Source: an uncultured Candidatus Brevefilum sp. (lineage in GTDB: Bacteria > Chloroflexota > Anaerolineae > Anaerolineales > Anaerolineaceae). Taken from it: a stretch of DNA of 64,000 nucleotides. The position numbers were made by a program, and so were the translations under genes. Each line of letters starts with the position of its first letter. Within the stretch, counting starts at the first letter, position 1. The DNA is taken from positions 40,207-104,206 of the forward strand of contig CAZCBW010000004.1 of the NCBI GenBank assembly GCA_964497065.1, written 5' to 3'. The notes beneath the pieces are model-generated. The model had not been told where the DNA came from, did not search any database, and saw nothing but the letters and a program-made list of their open reading frames with translations. Below are positions 19,359-34,246 of this stretch, one piece after another.

Positions 19359-22300
19359 ATGGGTACGAAAAGAATTATGTTTAAGTCGCTGGGTGTGTTG
19401 ATGGCACTGGCGATACTGATGGTGGCACTACCGGTTTTAACGGTTCAGGCACAGACAACTCGATATGTTGATCTGAATTATGGATCAAATACACCTGGTT
19501 GGGAAACAACCCACTTTGCCACAATCCAGAGTGCGATTGATGCTGCCAGTTCTGGTGACACGATTACTGTTGCTGCAGGAACTTATACTGAAGATGTGAC
19601 TGTTAATAAGCCCATAACTTTGGTTGGTGCAGGGAGAGATGATGTCACCATTCAAGGTGTAGGCACCGGAGAATCAGCTGCTCTGGTAATTGCTGCGGAC
19701 GATGTGACGTTTGAAGGTTTCACGATCCAAGGAGCAGCAGGAGGAAGAAAAACCGTACGTGTGACCACGGCGACGATAAACCTCGAGTTTTTGAACAACA
19801 AAGTTGTCACGGCTGATAACTCGGGTGAAGACAATGCCTGGAGTGGGTTTGAAACCACAGGCACCCAAACGGATCACATAATTAATGGGAATATTTTTAT
19901 TGGCAATAAAACTGCACAGTTGATTTATTTCAATCCAAATACCGTTGGGCTCACATTTACCAACAATACTATTGAAGGCACAGTGCGGCCAAATGGTTTG
20001 GTGGCTGGTTTTGAGGGGTTGGATGGTACCCAGAACATCAGTGGGAACACCTTTGATATCGAATCGGATTATGCGGTTCTTGAGCTTTTTGGAACTTTTG
20101 ATGGTGAAGCGATATTTGCTGCAAACACCTTCCCAGATGGCTACGTATTAATCGTCAATAAGGTTGTAAAAGCACCTCCTGTTTATAATGTTACACAAGG
20201 AACTTACTTTGACACCATCCAGAGTGCGATTGATGCTGCCAGTTCTGGTGACACGATCGAGGTGGCACCAGGGACATACGATGAAGATATTAATATCAAT
20301 AAATCCTTGACATTAAAAAGTGAATCAGGAGCTGATAATACATTAATTCGTGGTCAAAAGGGTGGTAATAATGCTACGATTCGAGTTTCTGCAAATGATG
20401 TAATAATTGATGGGTTTACCATAACAAGAGTTGGAAATAATCTTGCGGAGTGGAATGATTCGAGTTTAAAGACTGCTGGTATCGCGATTATTAATCGTTC
20501 GAATTCTGGATTATTAATCAAAAATAATATCATCATAGGGAATCGAACAGGGATAGATGTAAACAACACTTCCTATGTGACTATACAAAATAATGAGATC
20601 ATTGACAATCGCACAGGTTTATTATTCCGGAATGAAACCAATTATTTAACGGTTATTAATAATGAAATTACAGATAACTGGACAATTGGTATCCTGTTCT
20701 TGGATATGGGTGGCACTCCTCCCCAAACAGCTCATAACAGTGTGTTTAATAATAATAATCTTAGTGGCAATTGGTATGGTCAAGTTGAAGATAGACAACT
20801 TCCAGATGCTGAAGAAACAAATTTCAAAGATTTTTCATCGAATTGGTGGGGATCAACAAATTTGACAATTACCTCTGAGCCTGCAGGTGAACCGGGTTAT
20901 GCTGATCTAATACCAGTTAAATATGGTGGTACAGCAACCCCACCTGATTTTGCACCTGCCATTGTTGGAATCGCATCAAGCAATATCTTGTTTTGTCCTG
21001 TTCTTGATGCTCCACCGCCAGTTGGTGAGGTTTATTATTCAGTAGAAAATGCCGACACCGGTGAAAAATTCTGTACCATTCAAACTGGAATTGATGCTGC
21101 CAGCGTTGGTGAGACTTTAATTGTTTCACCTGGAACATATAATGAACTATTGATAGTTGACAAACCACTCACACTTCTTGGTCCAAATGCAGGAATTCAT
21201 GGCACTTCAGATCGCACCTCTGAAGCTGAGATTATTGGGCCATCGAATATGTGGTTATCTATATATGTTTCATCTGAAAATGTTGTAATTGATGGCTTTA
21301 CCATCAATGGTATAAATCTCGACCCTGGAAATTACTATACGGTAGGCTTATATAGTGTTGCGGGAGACTTTATATTAAAGAATAATATCTTCACGAACAA
21401 TAATGGCATGTCAATTCTTACTTCAGGAGGCTCATATGCTTCAGGGAATTCAATTTCCGGAGTAATGATCATTGATAATTTAATAACTAATGAGTATCCA
21501 AGTGATGACCCCTACAATTTTGGCATATATCTTCAAAGTACCCTTGCTTCTGTTACAGGCAATTTTGTCGAAAATATGCGAAGTGGTATACAGATACAAC
21601 CTTATAATATCCCTGGATATGGGTTAGTTGAAAATAACACCTTTTTAGCATATGCAAGGCCTCTATGGTTTAATTATGCAGTTCATGTGGACTCGAATTG
21701 GGAAATTAAAAACAATTTGATTTCTGGGATTGCTACACCTAGCTCTATCGAAGAACGACCATTTAATGCGATCCGAGTTGAAACATTCTACAATGGAAAT
21801 GTTTCCTTTACCCAAAACAGGGTGTTGTTCGGTGAAGCAAACTCTACAGAGCAAAATTTGTATCGGGAAAACAATGTTACTAATGGTATTAGTAACGCCT
21901 CACCAAACTGGTGGGGGAACATTGCTGGTCCAAAAGAAGCATTTGTAACACTCAAAGATACCTCATATATCCCCTGGTGCGGTGACCCCGAGTGCTCGTT
22001 CCTGGTTTACCCCAACGAAAAAGGCGAACTCGTGCTCGAAGGTACTATCAACCTTGACGGCGGTGTAAAGGTCGACGTGGACGGCGTCACGATCCTGGTA
22101 AAGGACGGTACGATCATTAAAAATGTGTCACCTTGCTTTGAAGTCACAGCGAACAACGTCACCATCCTCGGCGAGTCTGAGGGCGGCGCAACCTGTGTAC
22201 CAACCGGCACTTCCGCAGGCGTCGAAGTAGCTGACGGCGTTGAGACTTTGACTGTTAAAGGGCTGCATTTTGACGGCTCTGAGACATCCGGCCCGGCGAT

Positions 22301-24272
22301 CCATTTTGCTGGCAATGTTCAAGACATCCAGGTCCTCGATAACCTGTTTGAGGCTTTCTCACCTTCTGCGCTGGTGTTTGACGGTGCGGTAGATAAGCAC
22401 TTCATCCAGGGTAATCTCTTCTTGAATGTTGGTGCCCCGGCGATAATCTCAACAACCGAAATTAGCGCAGCTTACAACAGCTGGGGTGTCAATGAAGCGC
22501 CTGTAATCTCTGGTGTAACCACAACGCCTTTTACCCATGTAGATCTGTGGGTTTTGCCTGTAACAACGCAGGTGCTCCAGGGGGAAGATATCACCTTCAC
22601 CGTCATGGCAGATATGCAAAATATTGCAGGTGCTGAATTTGATCTCATTTATCCCACTGATCTCTTGACATTTAGTGGGTTTAGTGATGTTACCGTAGAA
22701 TTCATGGGCATAATTACTGGTGATGACCCGGAAACCCAAGCGGATTTGCTTACCCATTCACTAGGCGTAATTTCATTCCGTGGAACCTACGATTTCACCG
22801 ATAGTGAGGCCGGCCCTGTCTCAGGTGAAGATCTGGTCTTGTTCCGGGCAACCTTTACAGCATCCGAAACGCTGACCAGATTTGATACTCTTGGTTTGGT
22901 TGAGCTGCCCCAGGGATTTGCCATGAGCCCGGATATCGAACATGCCACCAATTATGTCTACCCGCTCCTCGCTGAAGATGTTGCGGTTAGCGTGGTGGCA
23001 CCGCCGGTGATCACCTCGGAGGATATTGAGGGCTACTACCTGGTCGATGAACTTCGGGAATTCAAGGTCAAAATGACCAACCCTGCGGAGGGCGGTACCT
23101 ATGAGCTCGTCCTGTTCCGCTTCGAAGTTGAGGCAGTAGATGGGGACATTACCCTGTTCCAGTACAAAGCTGATGAAAACTGGCTGAACATGCCTCTGGA
23201 CTGTGTGGGCGGTACCTGTGTGGGTTATTATGGGTCAGAGACTGGCTTCCCGCTTGGGACGAATTATGAAAGCGAAACCACGTTCCGGATCCAGTTTGCA
23301 AAATCAGGCGCCTACCCGGTGGTTATCACACTGGAAGATCTGAATGCTGACAACCACCTGCTGGCTTCATTAGAAGCTGAACCCCAGGTATATGCTGTTC
23401 CGGTCATTAGCTCGGACGATCTGGCAGGGCCTTATGTGGTCGACATTACCCAGGAATTCAAAGTGGCCATGACCAACCCTGCGGACGGCGGTACCTATGA
23501 ATATGTTCTGTTCCACTTCGAGGTTAAAGCCGAGGATGGGGACATTGCGGTCTTCCAATACAAAGCCGGAGAAAACTGGCTCGACATGCCGTTGACCTGT
23601 GTTTCAGGTACCTGTGTGGGGTATTACGGCCCTTCAGGTGGATTTAAGATTGAACCAAACTATTTTGCTGAAACCACCTTCCGGGTTCAGTTTGCGGAAA
23701 CGGGTACCTACCCGGTTGACGTGACACTGGTGGATCTGGATATGGATGAGCGTGTTCTGGCTGAATTTGATGACGACGCCATCGTCATCGACAGTGAACA
23801 GCTGGTCGGCCGGGTGATGATGCAGGGCCGTTATGAACGCGGCGGCGTCCTGTTCACGTTGACCCGAGAAGATACTGGCTTCGTCACGACAGCGTTCTCG
23901 TTGAGCCAACTTGGTCAACACAACGTTTTCATTGATGATGTAGCTGAGGGGTTGACATATTCCGTAACAGTCTCACAAGACCGCTACCTTGATGTGCATT
24001 TGGCCTTGGATAAAGTAATTACCTTGTCTAATGGCCAGTTTATCCTGCCTGATCTGTACCTGTATGCCGGCGATGTTACCAATACGAACGAGGTTGATAT
24101 TGGCGATGCAGCGCTGGTCGGTGCCCAATATGGTCTAACCGGTGCGGCAATCAGCCTTGAAGGCGATGCCAATTTCGACGGCCGGGTCAACATTCAAGAC
24201 CTGGCTCTGGTCGGCGGGAACTTCCGCATGACCTCGGGATCAGCCTACAGTACATGGTTATTAGCTGACTAG
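19359..24272 (+). CDS. 1637-aa secreted multidomain protein: parallel beta-helix modules, cohesin, two 132-aa repeats, carboxypeptidase-regulatory-like domain, C-terminal dockerin
   Basis: Signal peptide (VQA/Q). Three TIQ.AIDAA..GDTI.V..GTY.E module starts. Cohesin-like VLQGEDITFTV...IAGAEFDLIYPTDLL...VLFRATFTA. Duplicated Ca-loop GDVTNTNEVDIGD / GDANFDGRVNIQD. Confidence 0.85.
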   Translation: MGTKRIMFKSLGVLMALAILMVALPVLTVQAQTTRYVDLNYGSNTPGWETTHFATIQSAIDAASSGDTITVAAGTYTEDVTVNKPITLVGAGRDDVTIQGVGTGESAALVIAADDVTFEGFTIQGAAGGRKTVRVTTATINLEFLNNKVVTADNSGEDNAWSGFETTGTQTDHIINGNIFIGNKTAQLIYFNPNTVGLTFTNNTIEGTVRPNGLVAGFEGLDGTQNISGNTFDIESDYAVLELFGTFDGEAIFAANTFPDGYVLIVNKVVKAPPVYNVTQGTYFDTIQSAIDAASSGDTIEVAPGTYDEDININKSLTLKSESGADNTLIRGQKGGNNATIRVSANDVIIDGFTITRVGNNLAEWNDSSLKTAGIAIINRSNSGLLIKNNIIIGNRTGIDVNNTSYVTIQNNEIIDNRTGLLFRNETNYLTVINNEITDNWTIGILFLDMGGTPPQTAHNSVFNNNNLSGNWYGQVEDRQLPDAEETNFKDFSSNWWGSTNLTITSEPAGEPGYADLIPVKYGGTATPPDFAPAIVGIASSNILFCPVLDAPPPVGEVYYSVENADTGEKFCTIQTGIDAASVGETLIVSPGTYNELLIVDKPLTLLGPNAGIHGTSDRTSEAEIIGPSNMWLSIYVSSENVVIDGFTINGINLDPGNYYTVGLYSVAGDFILKNNIFTNNNGMSILTSGGSYASGNSISGVMIIDNLITNEYPSDDPYNFGIYLQSTLASVTGNFVENMRSGIQIQPYNIPGYGLVENNTFLAYARPLWFNYAVHVDSNWEIKNNLISGIATPSSIEERPFNAIRVETFYNGNVSFTQNRVLFGEANSTEQNLYRENNVTNGISNASPNWWGNIAGPKEAFVTLKDTSYIPWCGDPECSFLVYPNEKGELVLEGTINLDGGVKVDVDGVTILVKDGTIIKNVSPCFEVTANNVTILGESEGGATCVPTGTSAGVEVADGVETLTVKGLHFDGSETSGPAIHFAGNVQDIQVLDNLFEAFSPSALVFDGAVDKHFIQGNLFLNVGAPAIISTTEISAAYNSWGVNEAPVISGVTTTPFTHVDLWVLPVTTQVLQGEDITFTVMADMQNIAGAEFDLIYPTDLLTFSGFSDVTVEFMGIITGDDPETQADLLTHSLGVISFRGTYDFTDSEAGPVSGEDLVLFRATFTASETLTRFDTLGLVELPQGFAMSPDIEHATNYVYPLLAEDVAVSVVAPPVITSEDIEGYYLVDELREFKVKMTNPAEGGTYELVLFRFEVEAVDGDITLFQYKADENWLNMPLDCVGGTCVGYYGSETGFPLGTNYESETTFRIQFAKSGAYPVVITLEDLNADNHLLASLEAEPQVYAVPVISSDDLAGPYVVDITQEFKVAMTNPADGGTYEYVLFHFEVKAEDGDIAVFQYKAGENWLDMPLTCVSGTCVGYYGPSGGFKIEPNYFAETTFRVQFAETGTYPVDVTLVDLDMDERVLAEFDDDAIVIDSEQLVGRVMMQGRYERGGVLFTLTREDTGFVTTAFSLSQLGQHNVFIDDVAEGLTYSVTVSQDRYLDVHLALDKVITLSNGQFILPDLYLYAGDVTNTNEVDIGDAALVGAQYGLTGAAISLEGDANFDGRVNIQDLALVGGNFRMTSGSAYSTWLLAD
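19524..20257 (+). repeat. Exact 41-bp direct repeat pair at starts of beta-helix modules 1 and 2
   Basis: ATCCAGAGTGCGATTGATGCTGCCAGTTCTGGTGACACGAT occurs at 19524-19564 and 20217-20257. Confidence 0.95.
22993..23790 (+). repeat. Tandem intragenic duplication, 396-nt (132-aa) period
   Basis: ATGACCAACCCTGCGGA(G/C)GGCGGTACCTATGA at 23073 and 23469. Protein repeat EFKV.MTNPA.GGTYE.VLF.FEV.A.DGDI..FQYKA.ENWL.MPL.CV.GTCVGYYG. Confidence 0.92.
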
Positions 24273-24289
24273 AGAATTATTAACGTCCA

Positions 24290-24316
24290 GCAGGCCGGCC
24301 TTTATGGCCGGCCTGC
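24290..24316 (+). terminator. 11-bp perfect hairpin after the giant protein gene (no U-tract; attenuator or stabiliser?)
   Basis: GCAGGCCGGCC-TTTAT-GGCCGGCCTGC followed by AAAC rather than poly-T. Confidence 0.5.
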
Positions 24317-24405
24317 AAACCTATTTAATGATTAAGTTATGCTGCAAAATGAGCTGCCCCATGAAGGATGATCTGGCCCATGATGCAGTTGAGAATATTA
24401 CCGGG

Positions 24406-25389
24406 ATGGCATTATTGATCAATTATCGTATTTATCTTTTATTGGGGCTGCTGTTGCTGATGGTGATTCCCGAAGCTTCGGTGCAGGCTGCCGATTCGGC
24501 CCTGTTGTGGATAGACCCACCCTCCCAGAGCTTGCCGGCCGGGAACCAGGCGCAGGTGGTGATCGCCATCCGCAATGCGGAAGAGGTGAATGCCTTTGAT
24601 GTGCTGATCACCTATGACTCCGCGATTTTGGGGTTGTTCTCCTGGTCACACGGCGGGTTTTTTCAAAACCTGTCCTGCCTGGACCAATCTATCCAGCCTG
24701 GGCGTATCCAGCTGGCCTGCACCCAGGTGGCGCGGCCGGCCGTCAGCGGAGATGGTGTGCTGCTGACATTGGTATTTGACGCATTGGCGGGCGGCACATC
24801 CCAGGTGCGGATTGCAGAAGGGGTGTTTGCCAACCGGCTTGGTGTCAAGTCCTTCCCAGAACGGCAGCATGGGTCGGTGCAGGTACAGAGCCTGCCTACC
24901 TTCACCCACACACCGACATCAACTCCGACACAAACACCGACGCGCACGCCCACACCGACAATGACGGCTACCCGCACCCCGACTTCCACACTCCAGGTAA
25001 CCAGCGGGCTGCCACAGGCTGCGACAGCAGGCAAGTCGACAGCGGTGGTTGGGGCACAGCCCACCCGTGTTCGTCCTGGCGAGACTCAGCCAGCCTGGGG
25101 TATCCCTGAAAGCCAGTTTGAGCAGGGGTACCCGATTGAGGGAGATCAGGGTTTGGCAGCGGATGTTCAGGCAGCCACGGCTTATCCCGCCAGCGAGGGG
25201 GATGCAGAACCGCCAAACTTTGAACCGGCTGTTCAGAATGAGGCGGCAGTTGAAACGCCTTCGGAGGGGGCAGGTATTATGGAATTTTTATTGTGGGGGC
25301 TGCTGACCGGCAGCGGTGTTGGGTTATTTGGTTTGATCGGACTTTACTGGTTTAGAAGAAATAGAAAAAGTGAGGACATATTGTTATGA
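24406..25389 (+). CDS. Cohesin-domain protein with Pro/Thr linker and C-terminal TM anchor
   Basis: Signal peptide (VQA/A); LWIDP...VVIAIRNAEEVNAFDVLITYDSAIL...VSGDGVLLTLVFDA..G.S cohesin; TPTPT linker; TM followed by RRNRK. Start codon uncertain (the ORF track starts at 24304). Confidence 0.82.
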   Translation: MALLINYRIYLLLGLLLLMVIPEASVQAADSALLWIDPPSQSLPAGNQAQVVIAIRNAEEVNAFDVLITYDSAILGLFSWSHGGFFQNLSCLDQSIQPGRIQLACTQVARPAVSGDGVLLTLVFDALAGGTSQVRIAEGVFANRLGVKSFPERQHGSVQVQSLPTFTHTPTSTPTQTPTRTPTPTMTATRTPTSTLQVTSGLPQAATAGKSTAVVGAQPTRVRPGETQPAWGIPESQFEQGYPIEGDQGLAADVQAATAYPASEGDAEPPNFEPAVQNEAAVETPSEGAGIMEFLLWGLLTGSGVGLFGLIGLYWFRRNRKSEDILL

Positions 25390-26207
25390 AAGTCAATATG
25401 ATGTTTTATTGGTTGTGTTTGGGTGTGATCATCTGTTTTGCTTCGATGCCTGTGTCTGCACAGGCAGTGGGCGAAGCACAAATCGGTTTCTTCGAAGAGA
25501 TCATAATTGCGCCGGGGAGCAAGGTGGAAGTGCCCGTTGAAATTCGGGGGGTGGAAGATCTTTATGCGGTTGATATTACAGTCCGTTTTGATCCATCAGT
25601 GATCCAGGCGGTGGATGCTGATCCGTCCAAGGACGGCATCCAGCCCGGTCTGGGTACCTTTTTAGACGCCGGATTGGTCTTATTCAACGAAGTGGATAAC
25701 GAAGAAGGGGTGATCCGTTTCGTAATGACGCAAGTCAATCCGGCTGAACCGAAGTCGGGTGACGGCGTGCTGATGGTACTGTATTTTGAAAGCAATCTAT
25801 CAGGGGAATCTGTGCTGGCCATTGAGTCGGTTGATCTAGCCATGCGCACAGGCGAAGCTATTGCGGTGGAACCGGTTGAAGGCCGACTGCTGGTGGAAGC
25901 CGGCGCGCCGCAGCGCGAGGGCACCCCGATCCCGGTGCAGGACCCGACACTGATTATCGTCATCCCAACGTTGACTCCGACCCCGACTCCGACCGAGATA
26001 CCGCCTACACCAACCTCGACGGTCCCGCCTGGTGAGCTCGATGAGGTGCAGGAAAATGGCGAAGTTGGATTAGAGATCATCAATCAGGAGGATGAAGCAA
26101 TCCAGGCAGGCTACACGATCCTTGATTATTGGTGGGCAGTTGTTCTGGTTGTTCTGTTGGTGATCGGGTTGGCTGTGTATTTATTCAAGACCAAAAAGAT
26201 TGTTTAG
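25386..26207 (+). CDS. Cohesin-domain protein with Pro/Thr linker and C-terminal TM anchor
   Basis: PGSKVEVPVEIRGVEDLYAVDITVRFDPSVIQ...SGDGVLMVLYF; PTLTPTPTPT; WWAVVLVVLLVIGLAVYLF-KTKK. Confidence 0.85.
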   Translation: MKVNMMFYWLCLGVIICFASMPVSAQAVGEAQIGFFEEIIIAPGSKVEVPVEIRGVEDLYAVDITVRFDPSVIQAVDADPSKDGIQPGLGTFLDAGLVLFNEVDNEEGVIRFVMTQVNPAEPKSGDGVLMVLYFESNLSGESVLAIESVDLAMRTGEAIAVEPVEGRLLVEAGAPQREGTPIPVQDPTLIIVIPTLTPTPTPTEIPPTPTSTVPPGELDEVQENGEVGLEIINQEDEAIQAGYTILDYWWAVVLVVLLVIGLAVYLFKTKKIV

Positions 26208-26227
26208 GGAGAAAAAGGAAAAAAATC

Positions 26228-27427
26228 ATGAAACGATATATGTTGATAATTATGACCGTTATCTCATTGGCACTGGCCGGTTTGATGCTTGGCACAACGA
26301 CGCCGGCTTATTCAGAACCTGCACCTACCCAGCTGCTTGTCTCGCCGGAAACCTCCGTTTCCACTACCTGTGCGCCTCATACAATAGCCATTGCTGTGGA
26401 AAATGTGGAATCGCTGGCCGGGCATGAGCTTAAAATCAAGTTTAACCCATCGGTGGTAGCGATCATCAGTGTTGAAAATGGAGATTTTCTTTCTAACCCT
26501 GAAGAACAACTGCTTTACTCACCCGCCAATAATGACGGGGAGTGGAATGATGATGGTTATATCATTTTTGGCCTGGTACAGCAGGGGGAGGATGGCAACC
26601 CAGAACCACGCTCAGGCACCGGTACCCTGGTTGAGATTACGATGCAAGCATTGGCACCTGATCTGACAACAAATTTTGATATTGACACAGAAGCAACCCA
26701 ACTGATCTGGTGGGGGGAGGATGGAAGCCCGACAGAGCCTGGCGATCCTTTGGATGGGTCATTGATCGAATATACAGCCAGTCATGGTGTGGTTCATACA
26801 GATATCTGCCCGCCTCTTGCCCAAGATCAGGTTGTTAACACACTGATTGATTCCTCGGTGGCCATTGAGTTGACGGGTACAGATTTTGAAGGATTACCAC
26901 TGGATTATTATCTTGTGCCGCCTTATCCGCAATTTGGCACCTTATCCGGGGGCCCGCTGCCTGGCTTGATCTATACACCACTGCCGGATTTTATTGGCAC
27001 AGATTCTTTCAGTTTTGTTGTGTATAACGGTCGGTATTTCAGCCAACCTGCAACGGTGACGATCAATGTTCGGGAACCGGTGGCGATGCCAGAGGAAATT
27101 GTCCTTTCGAATAACACTATCCTGGAAGGTGAGCCGATCGCTACGGAAATTGGCACCTTCAGCACCCTGCCTGATGATGGGGTGGATTACGTCTACACGC
27201 TGGTAGCAGGTGGGGACGATGATGATAATGCCTCCTTTACGATCGATGGGAATCAATTATTGTCCGCGGAAGTGTTTGACAGCACACTCCAGTCGTTCTA
27301 TACCATCCGCGTGCGGTGTGAAGACCCGGGTGATGGCTCCCGGTATCTTGAAAAAGTTTTCACAATCGAGGTAGAGCCGGAATCTGAATTTCCTTTTAAA
27401 TATTACCTGCCCCTGATCACGCGGTAA
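26228..27427 (+). CDS. Secreted cohesin + Ig-like (Big_9/tandem-95-type) + cadherin-like protein with C-terminal YYLPLI motif
   Basis: IAIAVENVESLAGHELKIKFNPSVV...SGTGTLVEITM (cohesin); GTLSG...LIYTPLPDFIGTDSFSFVV...ATVTINV (Ig); IVLSNNTILE...IGTF...YTLVAG.DDDDNASFTIDGNQL (cadherin); ends KYYLPLITR. Confidence 0.83.
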   Translation: MKRYMLIIMTVISLALAGLMLGTTTPAYSEPAPTQLLVSPETSVSTTCAPHTIAIAVENVESLAGHELKIKFNPSVVAIISVENGDFLSNPEEQLLYSPANNDGEWNDDGYIIFGLVQQGEDGNPEPRSGTGTLVEITMQALAPDLTTNFDIDTEATQLIWWGEDGSPTEPGDPLDGSLIEYTASHGVVHTDICPPLAQDQVVNTLIDSSVAIELTGTDFEGLPLDYYLVPPYPQFGTLSGGPLPGLIYTPLPDFIGTDSFSFVVYNGRYFSQPATVTINVREPVAMPEEIVLSNNTILEGEPIATEIGTFSTLPDDGVDYVYTLVAGGDDDDNASFTIDGNQLLSAEVFDSTLQSFYTIRVRCEDPGDGSRYLEKVFTIEVEPESEFPFKYYLPLITR

Positions 27428-32188: not shown

Positions 32189-34246
32189 ATGAAATCTGCC
32201 AAAATGGAAAAATTAACAAAAACACCGTTCTTTGTACCGCTGGTCTTACTGGTGGTCTGTGTACTTGCGTACGGCTTATTGGCCCCCACCCTGGGGCTTT
32301 ACTGGGATGATTGGCCTTATGCGCTTTCCTATCACCGGTTCGGTCCGGCCGGGTATCCAGCTTTCGTGGCCTCTGACCGCCCCTATTCAGCCTGGATCTT
32401 CATGGGTCTGACCTGGCTGCTGGGTGAAAATCCACTGGGATATCATATCACCGGTATTGTGTTGTATTGGTTATGTGCGGTCTTGTTTTGGAAGCTTTTT
32501 AGACTTGTCTGGCCAACAAGGCATAACGAAGCCCTATGGGCCGGGCTGTTATTTGCCGTCTATCCTGGTTTTTTAGGCCAGCCAAAAACGATCATTTACA
32601 ACCATCACTTTATCACCATGGCGCTGTACTTGTTTTCACTGGTTGGCAACGTTAATGCTGTAAAGCATTCTAAAGGTTGGCCCTGGCATATCCCGGCAGT
32701 GCTGGCGATGGTCATCAGTCAGTTTTCAATCGAATATTATTTGGGGTGGGAGATTATTCGTCCTACCCTGGTTTGGATTGTGCTGTCGGCCCAGGCAGGG
32801 TCAGACCTGGTCAATAGAATACGTGCTGTATTAAAACACTTATGGCCCTATTGGCTGGGAACCATGGCATTTATTGTATGGCGTTTTTTCATCTTCAAAT
32901 TTCCGACCTATCAACCAGTCGTTAGTGATGAAGGGGTGAATATCAACCTGCGCTGGTTGGTACATATTCTCTCACAAATATTTGATGCTGTAGTATTGGC
33001 CTGGGGACGCTCCCTGCCTTTTTTATCGGCGCAGGATTACAGCGAGCCTTTTTGGCTAGCCTTCCTGGTATTAACGATCTTTTCCGCAGGTTTAGTTTTC
33101 TTTTTGCTGATTTATTATCACCGCAATAATGAAGATCGATTTGACAATCGAACTGACCTTGGGGATCGCTTCGCATTTTCGGCATTGATAACAGCCCTTT
33201 TGGGTATCTTTGCTGCCGGGTGGCCTTTCTGGTTGGTGGACCTGGAACTCAGTATTACAAGCCGGTTTCGCAGCCGCTTCACGCTGGCATTCATTCCCTG
33301 GGCAGTACTGCTTTTTGTGGTAATTTTACATGCAGTTTTCAGCCATAAACGCATTTGGCTGAAACAGGTTGTACTGGCATTCACAGCTCTGGTTGTGGGC
33401 GGGTCAGTGGGATGGCATTTTTGGAATGCAAATTATTACCGTAATGATTGGATTGAGGTCCAGCGATATTTTCAGCAATTGGTGACCCGGGCTCCCGGGA
33501 TCAAACCAGGAACGACACTGGTCGTGAATGATATGCGCTCTATCACGCTTTACCAGGATGATTCACTGGCATCCATCCTCAACTGGACTTATGATCCAGA
33601 GAACCGCACGACGGATCTGGACTATATGATGTTTTACCTCAGCGTACGGCTGGGTAACGATCTATCAGCTTTAAAACCAGGGCTGCCCATTGAAAAACCC
33701 TTCCGCTCGATGCACTTCTCGGGGTCCACAGACCAAATTTTGGTGGTGCATTATGATCCGCCTGGCTGCCTGCGGGTCATTGACGGCAGCCGACCGGATT
33801 TCGTGCCGTTGACCCTGCCCGATAAACTGGTGCCTGCTGTACCGCTTTCAGATATCAGCCTGATTAATACCGATCCGGTTTTTCCTGCTGCACCACCGGC
33901 TGCTTTCTTTGATCTCTCTGAACCAACTTCGTGGTGTTTGTATTATCAAGCGGCAGAACTGGCAGCACAGCGAGGAGATTGGGGGCAGGTGGCTGAGATC
34001 GGCGTTATCGCTTATACCAGGGATGACCTGCCGAATGAGCTGACTGAGCATTTTGTTTTTATTGAAGGCTATCTCCGCACTGGCCGGTTCGAGGATGCGC
34101 TGGTATTAAGTCAACCACTGTTTGAAACTGGTGATATGGGCATTAACAACCTGTTGTGTACTTTGTGGGGTGAAGCCGCGCAGGAGTCTGATGATTCCGG
34201 ATTTAACCTCGATGATGTATTAACTCAATTCTGTGAGCCATCATGA
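32189..34246 (+). CDS. Polytopic membrane protein, GT-C (ArnT/PMT-like) glycosyltransferase-like
   Basis: N-terminal GLYWDDW acidic loop, about 11 TM segments and a C-terminal soluble domain. Confidence 0.6.
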   Translation: MKSAKMEKLTKTPFFVPLVLLVVCVLAYGLLAPTLGLYWDDWPYALSYHRFGPAGYPAFVASDRPYSAWIFMGLTWLLGENPLGYHITGIVLYWLCAVLFWKLFRLVWPTRHNEALWAGLLFAVYPGFLGQPKTIIYNHHFITMALYLFSLVGNVNAVKHSKGWPWHIPAVLAMVISQFSIEYYLGWEIIRPTLVWIVLSAQAGSDLVNRIRAVLKHLWPYWLGTMAFIVWRFFIFKFPTYQPVVSDEGVNINLRWLVHILSQIFDAVVLAWGRSLPFLSAQDYSEPFWLAFLVLTIFSAGLVFFLLIYYHRNNEDRFDNRTDLGDRFAFSALITALLGIFAAGWPFWLVDLELSITSRFRSRFTLAFIPWAVLLFVVILHAVFSHKRIWLKQVVLAFTALVVGGSVGWHFWNANYYRNDWIEVQRYFQQLVTRAPGIKPGTTLVVNDMRSITLYQDDSLASILNWTYDPENRTTDLDYMMFYLSVRLGNDLSALKPGLPIEKPFRSMHFSGSTDQILVVHYDPPGCLRVIDGSRPDFVPLTLPDKLVPAVPLSDISLINTDPVFPAAPPAAFFDLSEPTSWCLYYQAAELAAQRGDWGQVAEIGVIAYTRDDLPNELTEHFVFIEGYLRTGRFEDALVLSQPLFETGDMGINNLLCTLWGEAAQESDDSGFNLDDVLTQFCEPS

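Follow-up and report, generated by a model that had tools for sequence, protein, structure and literature searches.

A stretch of 64,000 nucleotides (nt) from contig CAZCBW010000004.1 of an uncultured Candidatus Brevefilum sp. is referred to here as the window, and the locus under study occupies positions 19359-27427 of its forward (+) strand. We find it likely that this locus is the minimal form of a conserved Anaerolineaceae cassette for a non-cellulosomal, cohesin-dockerin surface assembly, its binding, partner choice and surface location being predictions from sequence. The four genes, designated A, B, C and D, are consecutive, all on the + strand and tightly spaced in the list of open reading frames (ORFs); since B and C overlap by 4 nt and the gap between C and D is 20 nt, they were read as an operon. 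A hydrophobic, signal-like N-terminal segment was found in all four products.

Cohesin, X-like and dockerin modules of the four proteins

The highest-scoring cohesin is that of gene C (25386..26207, + strand; 273 amino acids, aa), where it lies at 25455-25940, between the signal peptide and a Pro/Thr-rich (PT) stalk. With the gathering cutoff of Pfam Cohesin PF00963 at 24.1 bits, the modules of C, D and B scored 40.9, 26.7 and 24.4 bits, respectively, i.e., all three were above it, and the B and C cohesin families matched each other at 99.5% in hhalign. The best sequence match of the C cohesin was the type II ScaB cohesin 3l8q (E-value 6.7e-5 as a single sequence and 6.9e-6 as a profile). An AlphaFold2 (AF2) model of this module, the only cohesin of the locus that was modelled, was built from a 59-sequence alignment and proved to be all-beta, with a predicted local distance difference test (pLDDT) score of 87.8; it supports the flattened beta-sandwich (jelly-roll) fold of ~140-170 residues expected of a cohesin, and in a Foldseek search of the PDB its first 42 matches were all cohesins, with template modelling (TM) scores of 0.6-0.84. 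The module is also well conserved, with 44 invariant columns among 20 sequences of ~48% overall identity. The hallmarks of type II cohesins are an alpha-helix and two beta-flaps; the C model contains no helix by DSSP and thus does not display them, and its target-normalised TM scores were 0.81-0.84 with the compact cohesins 6kgf and 2xdh versus ~0.65-0.68 with type II structures.

Gene A (19359..24272, + strand; 1637 aa) encodes a signal peptide followed by four beta-helix units; a divergent cohesin comes next, then two repeats of 125 aa, and the protein closes with a putative X module and a dockerin. This architecture is repeated in the orthologues of loci L008, L009, L005 and others (L numbers designate the loci compared below). 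The divergent cohesin (22446..22940, + strand; aa 1030-1194) has no Pfam match of its own, even at E<=10. Nonetheless, its family of 12 orthologues matched the C family at 95.7% probability in hhalign (E 9.5e-9) and the B family at 95.6% (E ~1e-8), against 1.6-5.5% for the negative controls, and six of 11 orthologues individually matched Pfam Cohesin, the best at 1e-9. Because of this profile-profile comparison and the Pfam matches of the orthologues, A is considered to carry a cohesin. When the A-cohesin profile was compared with the PDB, the top four matches were again cohesins, albeit weak ones (E 0.1-0.4).

The dockerin of A (24036..24269, + strand; aa 1560-1637) contains two F-hand loops and ends in 'AYxxW'. 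A dockerin is expected to show a duplicated segment of ~22 residues, each with a 12-residue Ca loop bearing D/N at positions 1, 3, 5, 9 and 12, followed by a helix, and such a duplication was found here: loop 1 (24072-24107, DVTNTNEVDIGD, 12 residues) has D1, T3, T5, D9 and D12, and loop 2 (24165-24200, DANFDGRVNIQD, 12 residues) is canonical. The cutoff of Pfam Dockerin_1 PF00404 is 22.9 bits; the A dockerin scored 19.7 bits within the whole protein and 24.1 bits as the excised 78 aa, and the dockerins of A orthologues scored 25.5, 25.1, 18.8, 16.2 and 9.8 bits. A profile of the 18-member dockerin family found as its best PDB match 2b59_B, the type II X-dockerin of Clostridium thermocellum CipA (3.8e-7), followed by the Clostridium perfringens NagH dockerin (2jnk, 5.2e-7) and by other type I and type II dockerins. 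In a 44-member alignment, the conserved end of the family is AYxxWxP, which could form an N/C-terminal 'clasp' of the kind known for dockerins (PMC3821032).

Immediately before the dockerin lies an X-like module (23676..24050, + strand; aa 1440-1564), recognised by its alignment to the same CipA X-dockerin and by its conservation beside the dockerin in the loci. The 2b59_B alignment spans the X module into the dockerin, at E 0.0018 for the single sequence and 2.9e-5 with a 7-sequence profile; on the X side it covers ~35 residues, among them the motif Y-x-(L/V)-x-(I/V)-S-x3-YLD, and the dockerin gives most of the score. A word-index homologue search returned 6 matches with the X-dockerin alone and none with the 608-aa C-terminal region of A. 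In a full HMMER search against 1.84 billion cluster representatives, the X-dockerin profile retrieved 159 clusters at E<=1e-30. Among the best 148 of these, ~110 have a cohesin directly N-terminal to the X-dockerin. The conserved unit of the giant proteins is a predicted cohesin-X-dockerin triad, with its modules ordered as at the C-terminal end of the scaffoldin CipA, whose structures 3kcp and 4fl4 came up with 2b59 as best matches, and because of this C-terminal triad A would be scaffoldin-like rather than plain cargo.

The N-terminal region of A (19452..22454, + strand; aa 32-1032) is a predicted beta-helix, identified by Pfam and by NosD-like NCBIfam matches (Beta_helix 61, NosD 47 and DUF1565 37 bits in Pfam), with internal repeats D1 and D4. 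A repeated cap, '...TIQxAIDAASxGDTIxVxxGTY...', opens three of its units. No PDB relative of this region was found by sequence. Two tandem repeats of ~125 aa, 68% identical by BLASTP self-match, follow the cohesin (22926..23690, + strand); at the DNA level they appear as direct repeats D2 and D3, spaced at a period of 396 nt; they carry the motif CxGGTCxGYYG and have no match in Pfam. The same ~125-aa repeat also occurs in some giants and D-type proteins elsewhere among the loci.

In B (24304..25389, + strand; 361 aa as annotated), the signal peptide and cohesin (~24487-24903) are followed by a PT-rich stalk, a transmembrane helix (25285-25344, aa 328-347) and a tail; in C, the stalk is followed at 26106-26204 by 'YWW', a transmembrane helix and a Lys-rich tail. 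This sequence of a PT-rich stalk (~65-125 residues), a C-terminal transmembrane segment and basic residues recurs in the orthologues of both. B and C therefore have the predicted build of type I membrane proteins that would show a cohesin on a stalk, for which we infer a surface location. Homologues of C number >300, with ~285 aa and 45-55% identity. Neither S-layer homology (SLH) domains nor sortase (LPXTG) signals were found in A-D by Pfam or NCBIfam.

Gene D (26228..27427, + strand) encodes 399 aa from MKRYM, or 432 aa by the ORF, which opens at 26129; the start at 26228 is that chosen by gene callers on identical metagenome contigs. Its signal peptide and N-terminal cohesin (~26330-26827) are followed by a Big_9/tandem-95-type Ig-like region (26810-27400) that scored 40.7 bits with Big_9, 30.5 with NCBIfam tand_rpt_95 and 18.8 with Cadherin_5, the last being below cutoff, and by a C-terminal tail. 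The length of D orthologues varies from 205 to 3228 aa.

The four same-strand exported cohesin proteins, the stalks and C-terminal transmembrane helices of B and C, the Ig/cadherin domains and YYLPLI tail of D, and the duplicated Ca-loop dockerin of A had all been recognised in an initial annotation of this DNA, and each was confirmed here. Its expectation that the modules would match Pfam profiles held for the cohesins of B, C and D, and for the dockerin when excised but not within the whole protein. The three alternative anchors that it envisaged, however, are reduced to two, as only B and C have predicted anchors and the D tail is too short for a membrane helix; D rather resembles an additional arm of adhesin-like character.

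Conservation of the cassette in Anaerolineaceae

Three pattern scans, performed on one genome per species, recovered 25, 23 and 43 loci, which mostly overlap and represent at least 42 species genomes; the ORFs of the loci were mapped with phmmer and purpose-built hidden Markov models. The hosts are uncultured Anaerolineaceae, labelled Brevefilum, Mesolinea, Bellilinea, Longilinea or Anaerolinea, although a few contigs with the cassette bear other labels (Brocadiaceae, Syntrophorhabdus, Chitinophagales and 'bacterium'). No cultured isolate with the cassette appeared in the three genome scans. The relatives are Anaerolineaceae metagenome-assembled genomes (MAGs), a Brevefilum sp. being nearest to the window (64% in the best segment), and the proposed Anaerolineae origin of the DNA is supported. 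The locus is also no one-off in the lineage: the synteny comparison across Anaerolineae that had been suggested revealed the same order in at least 42 genomes, as well as larger versions elsewhere.

The order of genes is fixed. One or two giants with a cohesin-X-dockerin end come first, often followed by a ~180-aa cohesin with a short tail and often by a ~330-aa adaptor, i.e., a B-like cohesin joined to an X-dockerin, after which come B, C and D; the D position is alternatively held by a ~650-aa protein with a central cohesin, and the cassette often adjoins rpsB-tsf-pyrH. Among 29 unique loci, the giant dockerin and C were each present in 29, B in 25, the A-type cohesin in 23, D in 23 and the adaptor in 13. 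C was found in each locus whose flank extends far enough; L055, which is distant, and L031 and L032, which lack B, are among these loci. The minimal four-gene form is that of the window, L008 and L009, and no remnants of a small cohesin or adaptor gene were detected in the window by tblastn. The larger cassettes have dockerins of two subtypes: the giant type shows 'LVGGN', and the adaptor type shows 'LVAGN' as well as an insertion. Such a division would fit a two-level hierarchy of specific pairs. In assembly CAYVTF01, an identical cassette is present on two contigs of one MAG (L040/L041 and L065/L066), which is probably an assembly or binning duplication and not two gene copies.

In the databases, those C homologues that are named at all appear as 'cohesin domain-containing protein' or 'hypothetical protein', from Anaerolineaceae and Brevefilum; a giant or an adaptor is entered as 'hypothetical' or has no name. 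In full-text literature searches, no cohesin-dockerin system was found to have been described for Anaerolineae or Chloroflexota, in keeping with the earlier remark that no characterised example was at hand. The cassette is, as predicted from its genes, a family-wide, enzyme-free, transmembrane-anchored cohesin/X-dockerin set with two unexplained accessory elements.

The distribution of dockerins bears on the label 'cellulosome-like display system' that the initial annotation had given to the locus, with a beta-helix protein rather than a glycoside hydrolase (GH) as cargo. If a true cellulosome-like complex were formed, the cohesins would recruit dockerin-bearing, polysaccharide-degrading enzymes encoded elsewhere, and the beta-helix of A would be a lyase. 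Right-handed beta-helix domains do include pectate and polysaccharide lyases, A has faint Pel9A-like matches (in a precomputed table), the giant of L005 has sub-threshold GH43, GH130 and GH32 matches, and cohesins outnumber dockerins at the locus. Set against these observations, no catalytic domain of a carbohydrate-active enzyme (CAZyme) or carbohydrate-binding module (CBM) reached its cutoff in A-D or in a further six giants, where the cargo is of NosD/Beta_helix type or has no family assignment, and the best 148 X-dockerin proteins show the cohesin-X-dockerin arrangement, not an enzyme joined to a dockerin. A motif scan of the 64-kb window counted one dockerin, and the X-dockerin pattern occurs at one site per genome, namely the cassette; this count holds for a narrow pattern built on the narrower alignment A2, the 18-sequence diverse alignment being too variable for the purpose. 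Nor is there a multi-cohesin scaffoldin with a cellulose-binding module, as the cohesins number one per protein and Pfam finds no CBM. We therefore regard a true cellulosome-like complex as very improbable. Of the earlier proposal, the cohesin-dockerin modules and the beta-helix nature of the cargo (NosD, Beta_helix and DUF1565, with no GH) stand, and the comparison with a cellulosome goes too far; A, with its terminal triad, would also be more than plain cargo.

The 3' hairpin, the C-terminal tail and the probably mosaic gene A

A GC-rich hairpin, GCAGGCCGGCC-TTTAT-GGCCGGCCTGC, lies at 24290..24316 on the + strand, 18 nt past the stop codon of A. It has a perfect 11-bp stem, and the RNA fold had an energy of -27.9 kcal/mol and a z of -5.1. 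The pattern GCAGGYYGG-N3-20-CCRRCCTGC occurred once in 64 kb versus 0 expected. Across the loci (L005-L073) there is one such hairpin per locus, or two where there are two giant genes, always 10-30 nt past the stop codon of a giant. In an alignment of 28 distinct hairpins, the 13-bp stem was 94.9% paired, compared with 28-45% in slid controls, and 5 pairs showed compensatory changes; there were 41 double-change cells versus 14.4 +/- 2.8 upon shuffling, a value reached in 0 of 500 shuffles. When a covariance model of the hairpin was applied to 727 kb, its matches were 3' of giants, save a marginal one (E 0.76) in L067, where genes are unmapped. No U-tract follows the hairpin, and no Rfam family matched it. 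Its probable function is to mark the 3' end of the A transcript or to make that end more stable; a protein-binding site, which it may provide, is the other option. A DNA operator was judged less likely, since the loop varies from ~4 to 13 nt while the stem covaries.

The hairpin also bears on the start of B. Because the annotated ATG (24304) is inside the hairpin loop, B probably starts at 24406 (MALLINYRIY...), which yields a signal peptide of 28 aa, comparable to that of its orthologues, and a protein of 327 aa rather than 361. At its other end, the cytoplasmic tail of B (25375-25389) terminates in EDILL. An acidic di-leucine end, E(D/E/S)(L/I/Y)LL-COOH, is found on the B-type anchors of the Brevefilum-like clade (B orthologues in L005, L006, L008, L009, L011, L014 and L017-L020), in the form KDLLL in L018 and L019, and is absent from other clades; it is a possible cytoplasmic interaction motif.

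The second accessory element is the C-terminal tail of D, KYYLPLITR (27401..27424, + strand; tail peptide FPFKYYLPLITR), which follows the motif (Y/F/L)(L/F)P(L/I)(I/V/L/F)x0-6-COOH and is below the length of a transmembrane helix. It is the sole instance of the motif that ends a listed ORF in the window, two other matches being in short, stop-interrupted frames. Among the 882 unique ORFs of all loci, 33 bear the motif and 31 of these are cassette genes; the classes represented are small cohesins, D-type proteins and non-cohesin proteins of ~370-565 aa (L005-L053). None of the NCBIfam sorting-signal models matches the D tail. The D-type repeats are similar to those in myxosortase and rhombosortase targets, which places the tail where a sorting signal would be.

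In gene A, the GC content at third codon positions (GC3) is 0.25-0.40 up to about codon 800 (19359-21760) and 0.47-0.66 thereafter (21760-24272), and the N-terminal parts of the giants are weakly conserved among orthologues. The jump in GC3 together with this weak conservation suggests that A is a mosaic gene, in which cargo has been exchanged onto a conserved docking end; its beta-helix part looks newly acquired or swapped.

Upstream of the locus is a gene for an N6/N4 DNA methyltransferase, and downstream are pfk, rpsB, tsf and pyrH. A scan for promoter and terminator consensus sequences gave matches not above chance level, RNA structure 3' of gene D was not significant (z -2.0), and an Rfam search returned two tRNAs and no other family. 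A defence system was considered and rejected, as there were no PADLOC matches. Among RNA-seq runs, none was found to contain the locus. It is also to be noted that 32189-34246 encodes a 685-aa protein with at least 5 hydrophobic segments and no Pfam match, and that a similar-sized protein, likewise without a Pfam match, is on record 3' of pyrH in L006 and L008 (L001 being the window's own sequence). The GC content of the window is uneven, at ~0.45-0.55 over the first 46 kb versus ~0.33-0.42 over the final 18 kb, with GC3 as low as 0.27 there.

Proposed assembly and its relation to known systems

In the assembly that we propose, the signal peptides of B and C would be cleaved, the transmembrane helix would hold each protein in the membrane, and the Pro/Thr stalk would carry the cohesin across the wall, the cell being probably monoderm. 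Chloroflexota are increasingly viewed as monoderm, according to a recent preprint (bioRxiv 10.1101/2025.08.19.671072), and in such an envelope the B and C cohesins would sit at the outer face of the wall. Protein A would be secreted, and its C-terminal X module and Ca-binding dockerin would act in the manner of the type II X-dockerin by which the scaffoldin CipA is tethered to its cell, plugging into an anchored cohesin. C, as the one cohesin that no locus lacks, is the first candidate for this partner. Docking would fix the beta-helix region of A, a putative adhesin or polysaccharide binder or lyase, on the surface. The cohesin of A, located just upstream of its own X-dockerin, could serve as a further socket, and since the only nearby plug in the minimal cassette is that of another A molecule, head-to-tail chaining would be possible. 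As a second arm on the surface, D would contribute its Ig-like repeats, a cohesin in a distal or proximal position and the tail, and the hairpin 3' of A would allow A and the anchors to be produced in unequal amounts.

If such chaining were taken to its conclusion, the dockerin of each A would bind the cohesin of the next, and chains or a lattice primed on B and C would constitute the main layer or sheath of the filament. This self-assembling coat extends the surface assembly preferred here and does not exclude it, but we hold it to be doubtful. It would account for the cohesin and X-dockerin being joined on the giants (in ~110 of the best 148 representatives, and in 23 of 29 loci), for the minimal cassette encoding no second dockerin nearby, for the single-copy, family-wide occurrence of the cassette beside housekeeping genes, and for the hairpin after each giant gene, as expected of a product needed in excess. 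There is also a precedent in Amy4 of Ruminococcus bromii, whose cohesin binds its own dockerin and for which multimerisation has been proposed (PMC4611034). On the other hand, none of the other three cohesins is as divergent as the A-type, which also has the weakest correlation with the giant dockerin in the mirror-tree comparison given below. The most elaborate version, i.e., a coat of daisy-chained giants primed on two anchored cohesins, with (Y/F)LPL(I/V)-COOH as a new kind of short tag for a second mode of anchoring or docking and the hairpin setting the subunit ratio, is likewise put forward as speculative.

Several observations weigh against the surface assembly itself. Mirror-tree correlations between the giant dockerin and the cohesins, computed over 16 loci, were weak (B 0.48, D 0.43, C 0.37, A-type 0.19) and single out no partner. 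The window has four cohesins and one dockerin, so that some cohesins must have other ligands or none; as the genome scan for dockerins used a narrow pattern, other dockerin proteins elsewhere in the genome are possible. The cassette cohesins are not assignable to type I, II or III, since the sequence points to type II and the model does not. The Pfam scores of B and D are borderline, the dockerin is below cutoff in the whole protein, and its loop 1 is degenerate at positions 3 and 5. Finally, the AF2 model of the X-dockerin, built from a 7-sequence alignment, was of low quality (pLDDT 35) and was not used.

The degenerate loop and the borderline scores of B, D and the dockerin would be natural if the modules were unpaired, with the cohesins acting as Ig-like spacers or adhesion domains and the dockerin as a Ca-stabilised cap, so that the locus would encode four independent, co-transcribed adhesins. 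Indeed, many non-cellulosomal cohesin-like and dockerin-like modules are known for which no partner has been shown. However, the dockerin strictly accompanies the cohesins in a single cassette in at least 42 genomes, the C cohesin retains its 44 invariant columns at an identity of ~48%, and the giant-type and adaptor-type dockerins fit a hierarchy of specific pairs. Four unpaired adhesins thus appear very improbable, and the anchored surface assembly is retained as the preferred reading.

The cohesin-dockerin pair is the textbook glue of cellulosomes and a popular tool of synthetic biology; outside Bacillota, to our knowledge, it has been represented almost only by scattered domain matches. 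In anaerobic digesters and granular sludge, Anaerolineaceae are dominant filamentous organisms, and both the formation of granules and bulking are driven there by adhesion and by the filament surface. We know of essentially no characterised envelope proteins in this family. A complete, syntenic Chloroflexota cassette without enzymes would suggest that the pair has an older or wider function, namely to fix or polymerise surface proteins. The minimal cassette offers a testable set of parts, one X-dockerin and four cohesins, and may supply new orthogonal cohesin-dockerin pairs. The tail tag, the 3' hairpin and the mosaic nature of A are new, whereas non-cellulosomal cohesins and dockerins, and some of the 'cohesin domain' labels, were already known. 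The daisy-chained coat, if true, would be a new building principle of the bacterial cell coat.

Among the closest structure or profile matches were the Archaeoglobus fulgidus cohesin 2xdh (TM score 0.84) and the toxin complexes of C. perfringens (2jnk/2ozn, 2jh2, 2vo8), where the pair works outside cellulosomes; unlike the present locus, these involve no multi-gene cassette with transmembrane-anchored cohesins, an X module, giant beta-helix proteins and a tail motif. The amylosome of R. bromii (Amy4, Sca2; PMC4611034) resembles the cassette in that its cohesin-dockerin pairs function outside cellulose degradation, in having one protein with both a cohesin and a dockerin (the self-recognising Amy4), and in its small, cell-anchored cohesin protein. 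It differs in its GH13 amylase cargo, its 26 dockerin proteins and its sortase anchoring, as opposed to no enzymes, 1-3 dockerins and transmembrane anchors here. In the ScaA/ScaB system of Acetivibrio cellulolyticus (1qzn, 3l8q; complexes 4u3s, 4wi0), 3l8q is the closest by sequence to the C cohesin, and the ~330-aa adaptor of the larger cassettes, with its cohesin and X-dockerin, recalls hierarchical scaffoldins; the window itself has no adaptor, the identity in structural alignments is only 13-20%, and there is no enzyme layer.

The nearest parallel is the C-terminus of C. thermocellum CipA (CohI9-X-DocII; 2b59, 3kcp, 4fl4). The two systems differ in that CipA belongs to Bacillota and not Chloroflexota, has nine cohesins and a CBM3 where A has one cohesin and a beta-helix region, carries enzyme subunits of a kind not found here, and docks on SLH-domain proteins instead of single-pass transmembrane proteins with a PT stalk; the type II assignment of its partner cohesins also fails for those of the cassette. 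Nonetheless, in CipA and, by prediction, in A, a cohesin-X-dockerin unit ends a large secreted protein, and the CipA X-dockerin is the best match of the A X-dockerin by sequence as well as by profile. In CipA, this X-dockerin fixes a cohesin-bearing protein to cell-bound cohesins (SdbA/OlpB/Orf2p), and the same role is what the sequence of the Brevefilum locus leads us to propose for A.

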